IMG/VR virus record: IMGVR_UViG_2737471839_000009
Origin: a virus
Taxonomy: Duplodnaviria > Heunggongvirae > Uroviricota > Caudoviricetes
Direction: 5' to 3' (one strand)
Length of the DNA: 10,106 bases
Shown here: piece after piece, positions 2,227 to 5,568 of the stretch
How positions within the stretch are numbered: the stretch's first letter is position 1
Layout of the letters: each line of letters opens with the position of its first letter
Program-made: the position numbers and the translations under genes
The notes under the pieces: generated by a model
What the model was told of the DNA's origin: nothing
The model's input: only the letters and a program-made list of their open reading frames with translations
The model's database searches: none

Positions 2227-2853
2227 TCACAGTTTTCGTTTCATAACGAGACGTAACTGATGCGTCATGGCTTTCATCATCTGTTCCGGTAATTTCTCCC
2301 GGTACATCCGGTCACGTTCGCGCTCAAAGGTTTCTGCCAGCGGTCCGGCAGTCGGAATCTTCACCACTTCGATCGGCAGACGGTGGCGTTTCGGCCTCCC
2401 TTTGCTGTCCGCACCGGTGGACGATGATGCCCACGGCATACGCTGCATCACATGCCACCGGCCATTTTCCAGCCGTGTAATAAAAGCATTCGGGATCCGC
2501 CGTTTCCCGACAATCAGCACACTGCCACCGCCTTTCGTGACCGAACGCTCACCTTTCTTTCGCCGCTTTCTGCGGGAAAGCCGCACGCTGGCCGTCCCCA
2601 GTTTTATGACGGGCAGATTACCGGTGTTGATGATGACCTTCGCATAAACCCTGTCTGCGCTGGCCCGTTGCAGGCGGATACGCTCACGGATGAGACGGCG
2701 TGGGACCGCCAGCTCCCGGGCAACCGAAGAGGCCGTTTTCGCGATGATGGACTCCGCCACACGGTTAAGCGTGGTGGCTGCCGCACGGGGAACGGCACGG
2801 CGATCCAGCGCATCAAGATTTCGCATAGCCTGAGCCATTCCCTTTATCGCCAT
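2227..2853 (-). CDS. Z: Minor tail / tail completion protein gpZ
   Basis: 208-aa ORF MAIKGMAQAMRNLDALDRRAVPRAAATTLNRVAESIIAKTASSVARE…VIKLGTASVRLSRRKRRKKGERS…GGGSVLIVGKRRIPNAFI…NGRWHVMQR…IEVVKIP, closely parallel to lambda gpZ as recalled; AGGAG Shine-Dalgarno 5 nt upstream. Confidence 0.92.
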   Translation of the reverse strand: MAIKGMAQAMRNLDALDRRAVPRAAATTLNRVAESIIAKTASSVARELAVPRRLIRERIRLQRASADRVYAKVIINTGNLPVIKLGTASVRLSRRKRRKKGERSVTKGGGSVLIVGKRRIPNAFITRLENGRWHVMQRMPWASSSTGADSKGRPKRHRLPIEVVKIPTAGPLAETFERERDRMYREKLPEQMMKAMTHQLRLVMKRKL

Positions 2854-2855
2854 AC

Positions 2856-3137
2856 TTACTCCTGCTCGACAAAAATTCTGGTTTTGCCGTTATGAGTGTC
2901 ATAACGGGTCACCACCAGTAAGCGACCGTCAAACACAACTTCATCATGGCGTGCCGGAACGTACTGCTGTGAAAAAACAACCAGAGATAACAGGCTGCCG
3001 GAAAACGCCCCCATATCCGCGGACTCTTCCTCCGGCATCACGTCGTACACGACGCCGTTAATCTCCGCCTGTTTGCCCATCATCCGAACGGTCGCCACGT
3101 CCATCCGGCAACACATTCGCGTAAACAGATCAGACAT
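2856..3137 (-). CDS. Small head-tail connector/head completion protein at the lambda FII position (Gifsy-2-prophage-type family, sometimes mis-annotated 'ATP-binding sugar transporter-like')
   Basis: 93-aa ORF between the DUF2190-like gene and Z, with stop/start overlap on both sides. Family assignment is from memory of Gifsy-type prophage gene order and size, not from a search; its Shine-Dalgarno is weak. Confidence 0.55.
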   Translation of the reverse strand: MSDLFTRMCCRMDVATVRMMGKQAEINGVVYDVMPEEESADMGAFSGSLLSLVVFSQQYVPARHDEVVFDGRLLVVTRYDTHNGKTRIFVEQE

Positions 3138-3456
3138 TGATTTTTACCGCCACAGTGGCGCTGTTTGCTGGAGCATTTTCCCAGGCTACCCCCGCTGCCA
3201 CCGCACCGTCTGCAGCCAGCTGCACAACCCCGTCCTTCAGATAAACCACCGCGCCGGCCTGAATATCGTCAGCAGACTGTTTGGGCAGCAGGAACACGCC
3301 TTCGGCAAAACCGTCACCGGTCTCCCCGGCAGGAATATCGGTAATGGCCACTGCCACCATACTGCCGACCACCACCGCAGCACCGCTCAGGATGGTCTGA
3401 TCTCCGGCATTCACCAGTTCAATGGTGGTACCGTCCTGTACAAAATTTTTCGCCAT
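3130..3456 (-). CDS. DUF2190-like small Gly/Ala/Val-rich head protein (possible decoration/cement or head-completion protein), function uncertain
   Basis: 108-aa ORF MAKNFVQDGTTIELVNAGDQTILSGAAVVVGSMVAVAITDIPAGETGDGFAEG…, with GGAG about 10 nt upstream of ATG. Sits directly downstream of the capsid gene, the usual place for this family in Gifsy-like modules. Function is inferred from position only. Confidence 0.5.
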   Translation of the reverse strand: MAKNFVQDGTTIELVNAGDQTILSGAAVVVGSMVAVAITDIPAGETGDGFAEGVFLLPKQSADDIQAGAVVYLKDGVVQLAADGAVAAGVAWENAPANSATVAVKINV

Positions 3457-3473
3457 AATGCTGTTTCTCCGGA

Positions 3474-3495
3474 CAGCCCCTGCGGGGCTGTTTTT
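3474..3495 (+). terminator. Putative plus-strand (antisense-direction) intrinsic terminator
   Basis: Plus strand CAGCCCC-TGC-GGGGCTG followed by TTTTT (3474..3495): a 7-bp GC-rich stem, 3-nt loop and T5 tract. It would terminate transcripts running antisense to the late operon. Confidence 0.4.
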
Positions 3496-3502
3496 CAGGC
3501 AT

Positions 3503-3521
3503 AAAAAAAGCCCTTTCGGGC
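3503..3521 (-). terminator. Putative intrinsic terminator/attenuator or RNA-stabilising hairpin immediately after the capsid gene (minus-strand orientation)
   Basis: Minus-strand RNA would read GCCC-GAAA-GGGC followed by UUUUUUU (plus strand AAAAAAA GCCC TTTC GGGC at 3503..3521): a 4-bp GC stem with a GAAA tetraloop and a U7 tract, about 25 nt downstream of the capsid stop codon (3544). Confidence 0.4.
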
Positions 3522-3543
3522 AGTGATTGTGATAACGCGGTTA

Positions 3544-5568
3544 TCAGGCCACCGACGAACGCACCAGCCCGCGCCAGTCAAGTGGTGCCACTCCGGCATC
3601 AATACGGATTTTTGTGGCAATGCCGTCAGTGGTGAAACCTTCCTGCTGATCAATGTATGGCGTGTCCACACCATCGAGCCAGGCCACTTCAATGGTGTCG
3701 GTGCCCTGTGCCGCCGCCAGATACCAGGTTTTCGGATCTGCCGCATCAAGACGCGCTTCCGCAATTACTTCGGCAAAGTTCTGGATGGGGTTAATGACAC
3801 CGGCGTTTGCATCCGCCCCTTTCACACTGGCCGATTTGATGGTCTGGTTCGCCACCGTCTCCAGTGCCACCGGTACCAGCATAAAGGCCGGACGGATATT
3901 CAGGGCGCGATCGCCTTCTTTCTGCAGGCGCATCATCTGACGGGCCGCATCCAGTCCGGAAACGGAGATCCCGCCGGTGGCAATATTTTTGTGATCGGCA
4001 TGGAACAGCGCCTTACCGTCTGACAGTTTCGGGTTATCCGTCAGCACCTTGTAGACCAGGTCACCAATCGTTGCCTTCGCCGCACGCCCCATCTTCATCG
4101 GCACGTCAACCAGCATATTCAGGTCATCATTGATAATGGCCTGGCGGGTGATGGAGAAAATCTCCCCGTAAGTGGCCAGAGCAATGGTCTCCTTGCGATC
4201 TGAGGTGGTGATGTATTTATACTCCGCCCCTTCACGAACCTGACGCAGAGAACCAAAACCGCCCATCCCCACGCGATACGCTGTTTTGAAGTCTGACAGG
4301 CGTCCCTTACGGGTCCACTTCTGGAAGGTTTCTTCTGATTCCTCCCAGCCCTGGATCAGCCCCTTGTTCGACACATCCAGCAGAATATTGCCAAAATCAG
4401 AGGTGCTGTGCGTCAGCGCCAGCCCGACCATCTGCATGGGGTTATAACTGGCCACCCCAATACCACGCTCGGTCAGTGACATGCGAGCCCATTCACGCAG
4501 GGTCATCCCGTTATAGACATTATCCTTCTCGACATTTTCAAATCCGGCACGGGCCAGCATCGCCTGGCGGATCCCGTCTCCCACAAAATTGCCGTTTCCG
4601 GCATAAATATAGGCCGGTGTGTTTTTGTTGGTCGGCGAGGACTCCTTGCCCATTTCATTCAGAAGGCGCTCGCGGGCCATTTCCAGCGAACAGTCAGGAT
4701 CGGCCACACACTGCGCCTGAAGCGCCTGATAGCGCCCGCCAAACATGGCAAACAGATCGTTAATGCCTGACATGCGGGCTTTCTGCTCAGCCATAACGCG
4801 GGCGCGAATGGTCGCCTCATCAGACACTGCCGGTACCGGTGATGGTTCTGTTACCGCCGGTGCAGGGATTGTCACTGTGGTATCACGCGGGGCACTGTTG
4901 TGTGGCTGCGTGATCATATTTCGGATGGATTCCGGCATCTTTTTAAATTCCTCTGTACGTTTTGACTGAATACATGCCATTGCTTTAACGGCTGGCGTCA
5001 CCTGGTCAGCAAATCCGTGTGCCAGACACTCGGCACCGGACATCCAGGTCTCATCCGCCAGCATGGCGGCAATTTCATCGGTGGTTTTTCCGGTTTTCTG
5101 CGCATATACCGGCACCATAACCGACTCAAGTTTGTCCAGACGTTCGGCATAAGCGCGCATTTTCTCCGCATCACCACCGCTGATCCCCCAGGGTTTATGG
5201 ATCATCATGAAGGCATTTTCCGGCATAATGACCGTGTCACCGGCCATCGCAATCAGGGATGCCATCGAGGCAGCAACGCCATCCACATACACGGTAATGG
5301 CCGCACCGTGATTTTTCAGGGCATTAAAAATGGCGATGCCTTCAAAGACATCGCCACCCGGTGAGTTGATGTGGAGATTAATGTGGGTGATATCACCCAG
5401 GGCATTCATATCTCTGACAAACTGCTTCGCGGTGACGCCCCAGAAACCAATCTCATCATAAATATAAATATCCGCCTCACCCTGACCACCCGCCTGCATC
5501 CTGAACCAGGATTTATTCTTCATGCTGGCTGTCGGTGGCCTGCTGACGCTGTTGTTCAGTTCCGGCAC
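3544..5568 (-). CDS. Tripartite capsid gene: ClpP-like prohead protease, scaffold-like linker and HK97-fold major capsid protein fused in one ORF (Gifsy-2 type)
   Basis: Long ORF with an N-terminal ClpP-like region (…ADIYIYDEIGFWGV…HINSPGGDVFEGIAIFNALKNH…VDGVAASMASLIAMAGDTVIMPENAFMMIHKPWG…), a Pro/Ala/Glu-rich linker, and a C-terminal ~330 aa typical of HK97-family capsid proteins. Start is uncertain: I prefer GTG at 5568..5566 (GGAGG 5 nt upstream at 5574..5578) over ATG at 5523..5521 (MKNKSWF…, poor Shine-Dalgarno) or ATG at 5499. The ORF-track start at 5760 lies deep inside the portal gene and is unlikely. Confidence 0.85.
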   Translation of the reverse strand: MPELNNSVSRPPTASMKNKSWFRMQAGGQGEADIYIYDEIGFWGVTAKQFVRDMNALGDITHINLHINSPGGDVFEGIAIFNALKNHGAAITVYVDGVAASMASLIAMAGDTVIMPENAFMMIHKPWGISGGDAEKMRAYAERLDKLESVMVPVYAQKTGKTTDEIAAMLADETWMSGAECLAHGFADQVTPAVKAMACIQSKRTEEFKKMPESIRNMITQPHNSAPRDTTVTIPAPAVTEPSPVPAVSDEATIRARVMAEQKARMSGINDLFAMFGGRYQALQAQCVADPDCSLEMARERLLNEMGKESSPTNKNTPAYIYAGNGNFVGDGIRQAMLARAGFENVEKDNVYNGMTLREWARMSLTERGIGVASYNPMQMVGLALTHSTSDFGNILLDVSNKGLIQGWEESEETFQKWTRKGRLSDFKTAYRVGMGGFGSLRQVREGAEYKYITTSDRKETIALATYGEIFSITRQAIINDDLNMLVDVPMKMGRAAKATIGDLVYKVLTDNPKLSDGKALFHADHKNIATGGISVSGLDAARQMMRLQKEGDRALNIRPAFMLVPVALETVANQTIKSASVKGADANAGVINPIQNFAEVIAEARLDAADPKTWYLAAAQGTDTIEVAWLDGVDTPYIDQQEGFTTDGIATKIRIDAGVAPLDWRGLVRSSVA

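Follow-up and report, generated by a model that had tools for sequence, protein, structure and literature searches.

The virus record IMGVR_UViG_2737471839_000009 (Caudoviricetes), a stretch of 10,106 nucleotides that we refer to as the window, carries tail genes that resemble those of phage lambda immediately next to head genes that largely do not. This arrangement raises the question of how the protein encoded at the position of lambda FII, at the head–tail interface, could be compatible with a lambda-type tail terminator. Our analysis indicates that the junction is real, but old, lineage-wide and already known, and that it is ordinary for lambdoid prophages. It very probably represents an ancient boundary at which a lambda-family tail block adjoins a lambda-like head block, of which there are two deeply diverged kinds, with a matched pair of head-closure protein (stopper) and tail terminator (U). 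The interval concerned (2227–3544) spans the genes for cement, the FII-position protein and Z, together with an 87-nucleotide spacer that follows the capsid gene; it belongs to the late operon, for virion assembly, of an Escherichia coli lambdoid prophage of the Gifsy-2/VT1-Sakai type. As a discovery the junction carries little weight; annotations of this head/tail combination go back to the Gifsy-2 and VT1-Sakai genomes. All long open reading frames of the window lie on the minus strand, and those around the junction are the following.

3544–5523, minus strand: ClpP-like prohead protease/major capsid fusion, the last head-shell gene (CLP_protease, 2.5e-36; Phage_capsid_4, 9.3e-56)
3130–3456, minus strand: head decoration (cement) protein (DUF2190/Phage_cement_2; Pfam, 9.2e-20)
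2856–3137, minus strand: FII-position (stopper) protein, 93 amino acids (Pfam Gifsy-2, PF13856)
2851–2863, minus strand: Z ribosome-binding site GGAG, stopper TAA, 2-nucleotide spacer and Z ATG; onset of nucleotide similarity to lambda
2227–2853, minus strand: tail completion protein Z (Ne1 class), 208 amino acids (Pfam Minor_tail_Z)
1819–2217, minus strand: tail terminator U (Tc1 class), 132 amino acids (Pfam Phage_tail_U, 2.6e-52)
1062–1811, minus strand: major tail tube protein V with a C-terminal immunoglobulin-like domain (Phage_TTP_12, 1.7e-66; Big_2, 5.4e-16)

The step in similarity to lambda

On the tail side of the junction, the window proteins Z, U, V, G and T share 53–75% amino acid identity with their lambda counterparts. 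Specifically, BLASTP returned 55% identity for U (E = 2.0e-49), 75% for V (E = 2.7e-140), 66% for G (E = 2.7e-63) and 74% for T (E = 1.2e-70). Sensitive blastn aligned window positions 138–2863 with lambda 7967–10598 in one unbroken alignment of 2743 columns at 68% nucleotide identity, and positions 1–50 with lambda 10654–10702, inside H. The initial proposal that Z, U, V, G, T and the start of H are close to lambda is thus borne out, with 68% nucleotide identity continuing through to H. In composition the block is a lambda-family tail module: members of the Z, U and V families follow one another in the expected sequence, G and T are paired, and a −1 slippery heptamer is present.

On the head side, the large terminase is 24% identical to lambda A (E = 8.5e-18) and the portal 21% identical to lambda B (E = 2.4e-7), and the capsid fusion, the cement protein and the FII-position protein have no BLASTP match among the lambda proteins (in particular, none between the capsid fusion and lambda C, Nu3 or E, or between the cement protein and lambda D). 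No blastn alignment to lambda was obtained upstream of position 2863, even at word size 7. The onset of similarity, window 2863 or lambda 7967, falls within the Z ribosome-binding site about 10 nucleotides before the Z ATG (2851–2853), the stop codon of the FII-position gene being at 2856–2858. Given this alignment edge and the lack of any alignment beyond it, the switch can be placed at the boundary between the FII-position gene and Z, in the short interval around the FII-position gene where it had been predicted, and with E = 0 for the alignment the step is not a matter of chance. Uniform identity to lambda across head and tail genes, which would have argued against a mosaic, was not seen; per-gene BLASTP and blastn both give a sharp step. 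The further statement of the first-pass annotation that everything upstream of Z belongs to non-lambda families holds for the capsid fusion and the cement protein, but not for the terminase and portal, which fall in the Pfam families of lambda A and B.

A step of this kind could in principle arise with no exchange at all, by vertical divergence from lambda in which the head genes simply evolved faster than the tail genes. The gene order, which is collinear with that of lambda, would fit such a history, as would the distant homology of terminase, portal and stopper to their lambda counterparts. Comparison with phage mEp460 tells against it. Relative to mEp460, the head genes of the window are 71–78% identical and the tail genes Z, U and V 41–55%, so that within the Gifsy-type group it is the head genes that are slower and the order is the reverse of that seen with lambda. 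With mEp043 included, head genes are 50–78% identical to those of mEp460 and mEp043 and at most 24% to those of lambda, whereas tail genes are 53–74% identical to those of lambda and 36–64% to those of mEp460 and mEp043. Because of this rank reversal, the step is not attributable to unequal evolutionary rates. In addition, the protease/capsid arrangement and the decoration protein belong to other families than in lambda, FI is missing, V alleles up to 100% identical are found beside both head types, and the incongruence of the gene trees refutes strict vertical descent. We therefore consider a history without exchange scarcely credible, and the suggestion that modular exchange lies behind the discontinuity is upheld by the rank reversal and the incongruent trees.

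The separation of head and tail genes into modules is textbook knowledge for lambdoid phages and is restated in the literature (PMC9836094). Within the tail block the similarity to lambda is itself uneven: in consecutive 100-nucleotide segments, Z and U are 46–69% identical to lambda, a level corresponding to family background, and V, G and T are 62–87% identical. An abrupt change in similarity together with a change of nearest relative is found at two places, at stopper/Z in the comparison with lambda and at U/V in the comparison with L312, a phage with lambda-type head, stopper and U; tree incongruence is observed as well.

Identity of the FII-position protein

With respect to the connector itself, the first-pass annotation had assigned the FII-position protein to a different family from lambda FII. 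In terms of Pfam families this is accurate. The protein is a member of PF13856 (45.7 bits against a gathering cut-off of 24.1, residues 1–87) and matches the Gifsy-2 protein STM1035 in the Protein Data Bank (2PP6, E = 1.3e-10, residues 1–92). It is not a member of PF05354 (Phage_attach, the gpFII family), against which it scores 15.8 bits (cut-off 26, E = 0.021) in a local match only, and its mEp460 and Gifsy-2 homologues likewise remain below threshold (19.2 bits, E = 0.0018, and 16.8 bits, E = 0.01, respectively).

Searches in the opposite direction point to a remote relationship nonetheless. Lambda gpFII matches phrog_153, the family of the FII-position protein, over nearly its full length (3.9e-7), and matches the Pfam Gifsy-2 family at 0.0028. 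Alignment of the two families by hhalign gave E = 4.9e-4 over 83 columns with 28% identity and a probability of 32%, both alignments being shallow, and an N-terminal D-x-F...R-x-D motif is aligned between them. Moreover, Foldseek comparison of the predicted structure retrieved two 114-residue chains, 8xow_f and 8k37_M, from lambda virion structures with a probability of 1.00. Both entries contain gpFII, and the chain length fits the gpFII model, which spans residues 4–117 (PMC10721106). The predicted model shows a beta-sandwich fold that is superposable on gpFII and on siphophage stoppers. The position of the gene is also that of a stopper, after the head-shell genes and directly before Z and U, an order that is the same in all relatives. 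In comparison with gpFII, the hairpin of the window protein is shorter and the basic C-terminal loop is absent.

Based on the profile matches and the predicted fold, we assign the FII-position protein as a head-closure (stopper) protein that appears to be a remote homologue of gpFII within the same fold superfamily, inside PF13856 and outside PF05354; the idea of a connector unrelated to lambda FII is accordingly given up. The names now attached to PF13856 proteins are misleading in light of this evidence: Pfam has 'ATP-binding sugar transporter from pro-phage', PGAP 'DNA breaking-rejoining protein' and PHROGs 'minor tail protein'. For proteins annotated as 'DNA breaking-rejoining' or 'ATP-binding sugar transporter-like', head-closure (stopper) protein would be the corrected annotation. 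In the collection of papers searched, none named both gpFII and Gifsy-2. The database copy of the window stopper (P0002) is 82 amino acids long and starts at Met12, but the homology to 2PP6 begins at residue 1 of the 93-residue form. The start of the stopper gene overlaps the stop of the cement gene: ATGTCTGA.

Several points weigh against this assignment and against the account of the junction built on it. The AlphaFold 2 model is of medium confidence (mean predicted local distance difference test score, pLDDT, 73.6), with the N-terminus and the hairpin below 50, and the Foldseek E-values to gpFII are only 5.5e-3 and 9.1e-3. Taken piece by piece, the sequence evidence linking stopper and gpFII is weak, given the hhalign probability and the Pfam cross-matches below the gathering threshold. 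Lastly, with a shorter hairpin and no basic C-terminal loop, the contact between stopper and U cannot equal that of lambda.

An alternative account holds that a recent or unusual recombination event placed a non-homologous connector beside lambda-type Z and U, and that the locus shows adaptation of this connector to a lambda terminator. It would account for the failure of BLASTP to link the FII-position protein with lambda FII, for their placement in different Pfam families and for the sharp onset of nucleotide similarity at a gene boundary. The reciprocal profile matches and the fold match of the stopper to gpFII oppose it, as do three observations detailed below: the window U belongs to a clade specific to Gifsy-type stoppers rather than to that of lambda, the junction recurs in many phages and in hundreds of genomes, and a recently exchanged patch runs across the boundary. 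We consider this account highly improbable and favor the older, lineage-wide boundary.

Stopper type and the tail terminator

In lambda, the N-terminal helices of gpFII form a ring around the gpW barrel, and its basic C-terminal loop makes an electrostatic contact with the neighboring O-loop; gpZ is present in the virion but not resolved in the structure (PMC10721106). A hexameric stopper ring between adaptor and tail terminator is established for lambda only (PMC10721106). Lopes et al. placed gpFII (Hc1), gpZ (Ne1) and gpU (Tc1) in a single neck module in 2014 (PMC4362835). The window would fit the Type 1 (SPP1-like) module Ad1-Hc1-Ne1-Tc1 of that scheme (PMC4362835), its adaptor being at most a putative relative of gpW (hhalign E = 0.015). 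Heads and tails assemble apart. By analogy with the solved lambda neck, a stopper hexamer seated on the portal–adaptor complex would dock onto the hexameric U that caps the V tube. From the same analogy we infer a physical contact between stopper and U in the window's phage.

About 315 loci were collected from one viral contig collection with four U seeds, and the figures that follow refer to the matches listed. The stopper upstream of each was typed by profile hidden Markov models, and Z, U and V were extracted per locus. In total, 210 distinct stopper-Z-U-V combinations were obtained; the stopper is lambda-type in 136 of them and Gifsy-type in the other 74, which makes 10,064 cross-type pairs. 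For U, the best cross-type identity was 62.9% and none of the 10,064 pairs reached 70%; a single change of stopper type suffices on the neighbor-joining tree, and single-linkage clusters were never mixed. For V, cross-type identity rose to 100%, with 582 of the pairs at 90% or above, 30 changes of stopper type on the tree and extensively mixed clusters. Z was intermediate, with a best cross-type identity of 85%, three switches and two mixed clusters. When stopper labels were permuted, about 61 changes were needed on the tree.

The window U follows this pattern. It is 58.8% identical to the best U linked to a lambda-type stopper, and at each of the 15 clade-diagnostic positions its residue is that of the Gifsy clade; neither feature of a lambda-clade U (identity of at least about 63% to a lambda-linked U, lambda-type diagnostic residues) was found. 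Judging by sequence, it belongs to a clade found, among the matches listed, only with Gifsy-type stoppers. Since all 15 positions are of the Gifsy type, the stopper–U pair of the window can be regarded as matched. Both clades share the core of the U O-loop, D25 G26 R27 P28, acidic residues at 32, 33 and 35, and P37. For the O-loop, this larger set yielded one clear stopper-specific position (36) and three partial ones, and in a set of 11 phages no strictly disjoint U column was present inside it. Most diagnostic positions lie elsewhere, which does not support a specificity residing wholly within the O-loop.

These observations suggest an answer to the question of how a heterologous connector stays compatible with a lambda-type terminator, as the first-pass annotation had framed it. 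That premise does not survive: the stopper has a predicted gpFII fold, U is of the Gifsy clade and the pair is matched. Compatibility would then be no puzzle: the stopper appears to be a divergent protein of the gpFII fold in which the N-terminal D-x-F...R-x-D motif is retained, the U loop core that contacts gpFII (D-G-R-P ... acidic ... P) is kept in both lineages, and U is co-inherited with the stopper type even though Z, between them, and V, after them, are exchanged. Co-segregation would, in our interpretation, reflect functional matching. Whether stopper and U form a 'lock and key' pair, co-inherited even though they are not contiguous while Z and V are exchanged between lineages, is a reading that we put forward tentatively and with some reservation.

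Association through linkage and sampling alone is the main competing explanation of the U–stopper pattern. Only about 630 bp separate U from the stopper, sampling of the loci was seeded on U, and the three switches of Z imply that the stopper-Z-U block is rarely broken. Rare cross-type combinations of U could have been missed with four U seeds and one collection, and co-segregation could stem in part from close linkage and shared history and not from functional constraint; both points weigh against a matched pair. On the other hand, Z sits between stopper and U and is nevertheless exchanged across types, which weakens the case for linkage, and we regard linkage and sampling as a rather unlikely sole cause. 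If stopper and U are indeed matched, the specificity of head–tail joining would limit viable module swaps in lambdoid phages, and the 15 clade-diagnostic U residues, including O-loop position 36 and its neighbors 23, 30 and 34, would mark specificity determinants. Such a restriction on surviving recombinants would be a hint relevant to the engineering of chimeric lambdoid and Stx phages and to prophage mosaics in pathogenic E. coli.

The co-segregation data also bear on where tail genes are currently being exchanged. Relative to L312, nucleotide identity is 40–66% through U and jumps to 81–96% across V (1856–957), then declines in G before recovering in T; the window V is 95% identical to that of L312 at the amino acid level. 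Given this jump, and given that U is co-inherited with the stopper type while Z and V are exchanged, the actively swapped tail-gene boundary is U/V (~1811–1860) and not stopper/Z. The functional module boundary is thereby placed after U rather than before Z. Two features mark recent exchange in the window:

1811–1860, minus strand: U/V boundary, a recent recombination junction relative to lambda-head phages (identity jump against L312)
2701–3500, minus strand: patch of recent exchange that takes in the cement and stopper genes and the initial ~150 nucleotides of Z (differences from E. coli 08-00022)

The second of these stems from comparison with the closest genome, a prophage of E. coli 08-00022 that is 98.4% identical at the nucleotide level over the window. 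About 102 of 164 differences fall within 2701–3500, and the patch crosses the boundary between the FII-position gene and Z and does not end there. The best match to segment 2457–3137 among 5426 complete E. coli genomes is 92.1% identical, whereas the whole window has one at 98.4%. No stopper gene among ~330 related loci exceeds 89.4% nucleotide identity to that of the window, the cement gene reaching 97.9% and U 99.7%, and a large protein database holds one stopper protein at 96% identity, the next best being at 86%. By these sequence comparisons the stopper allele is rare.

Head module, relatives and remaining features

Of the 5426 complete E. coli genomes, 495 contain 80% or more of the window, which is 92.8–93.6% identical in nucleotides to VT1-Sakai and Stx2a phages. 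The same architecture is annotated in Gifsy-2, Fels-1, mEp460, mEp043, a Providencia phage and VT1-Sakai, and the Gifsy-2 record labels its own genes 'Lambda gpZ/gpU/gpV homolog'. The junction can thus hardly count as a special feature of this locus, the same layout being present in Gifsy-2, Fels-1, VT1-Sakai, cdtI, mEp460 and mEp043. Like the window, this group (Gifsy-2/Fels-1 and VT1-Sakai/cdtI/mEp460/mEp043) has a DUF1441 protein, a GpA terminase, a small adaptor and a lambda-family portal, followed by the ClpP–capsid fusion, DUF2190 cement, PF13856 stopper, Z, U, V, G, T and H. The window differs from the group only by an allelic patchwork, with a rare stopper allele and a V allele common to lambda-head phages. 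The head module is of the Gifsy-2 type by Pfam composition and synteny, its genes being 36–67% identical in amino acids to those of Gifsy-2 and in the same order.

The remaining genes of the window are as follows.

9344–9820, minus strand: small terminase (Pfam DUF1441)
7224–9347, minus strand: large terminase (Pfam GpA_ATPase and GpA_nuclease)
7015–7251, minus strand: small adaptor-position (W-position) protein, no firm family
5513–7015, minus strand: portal (Pfam Phage_portal_2, 'lambda family')
615–1046, minus strand: G, lambda G-like by BLASTP
184–588, minus strand: T, lambda T-like by BLASTP
Start only, minus strand: H, lambda H-like by blastn

The layout is collinear with that of lambda (Nu1-A-W-B-C/Nu3-D-E-FI-FII-Z-U-V-G-T-H), and the two share the terminase and portal Pfam families, a stopper with the (predicted) fold of gpFII, and a GGGAAAG at the end of G. 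The differences begin with the head, where no protein of the window exceeds 24% identity to a lambda protein and some have no detectable counterpart. In the window a ClpP-type protease forms a fusion with the capsid protein, whereas lambda has an S49 protease (C/Nu3) and a separate E. The decoration protein belongs to another family than that of lambda, and its gene follows the capsid gene. FI is absent, the stopper is without the basic C-terminal loop of gpFII, and U is of another clade.

The head had also been described as HK97-type, and this attribution is withdrawn, as no window protein matches the HK97 structural region (terminase, portal, protease, capsid, gp6/gp7) by tblastn at E ≤ 0.01. 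Protease and capsid protein are separate genes in HK97, unlike the fusion in the window, and the HK97 head-closure protein gp7 (Pfam Phage_HCP) is of a different family from the window stopper. The HK97-like capsid fold, which is expected of all tailed phages, would be the sole likeness of the two heads.

The capsid fusion is 58–73% identical to its homologues in mEp460, mEp043, Fels-1 and Gifsy-2, and PGAP uses the same protease/capsid name in E. coli 08-00022. Its longest open reading frame, starting from TTG 5760, shares ~250 nucleotides with the portal gene; the ATG at 5523, used by PGAP in E. coli 08-00022 and giving an 11-nucleotide overlap with the portal stop, is the more plausible start. 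In VT1-Sakai (L328, 5457–6766), IS629 splits the ClpP–capsid gene, and at another locus (L155, 1–900) an insertion sequence transposase gene lies directly upstream of a lambda-type Z, in place of head genes. Both are presumably defective prophages. L155 had been a candidate for a third stopper type, which is ruled out, as the transposase replaced the region upstream of Z. The cement protein matches phrog_122, 'head decoration', at 1.2e-39, and a sequence search for solved structural relatives returned none for the cement protein or for Z.

The W-position protein gave a marginal local BLASTP match to lambda W (E = 0.058) and an hhalign probability of 3% against gpW; a profile search of the Protein Data Bank gave no gpW match. 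A C-terminal RRRG-x-x-GF motif is common to this protein (7015–7251) and lambda gpW. The corresponding part of lambda gpW forms its portal-binding arm.

Just after the capsid gene, at 3503–3521 on the minus strand, a four-pair stem-loop followed by seven T residues, GCCCgaaaGGGC TTTTTTT, can be read from the sequence; the element in full is GCCCgaaaGGGCTTTTTTT. A second hairpin of 7 bp lies at 3474–3490 on the same strand, ahead of the cement ribosome-binding site. In mEp460 and mEp043, rho-independent terminators are annotated at the position matching 3474–3521, and the element is probably a partial terminator or an mRNA-stabilizing element. A terminator pattern scan of the coding strand of 2227–3544 gave no match, the scan being blind to the 3503–3521 stem-loop because its stem is only 4 bp.

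The slippery heptamer GGGAAAG near the end of G occupies 633–639 on the minus strand. Three such heptamers occur in the window, with 1.7 expected, a number not statistically unusual in itself; by analogy with lambda, the position of this copy fits a G–T fusion product made by a lambda-type −1 frameshift. Lastly, the stretch upstream of the small terminase (9821–10106) has a GC content of ~0.44, compared with 0.50–0.61 elsewhere in the window, and may be a cos/packaging-site region or the end of a preceding lysis module.

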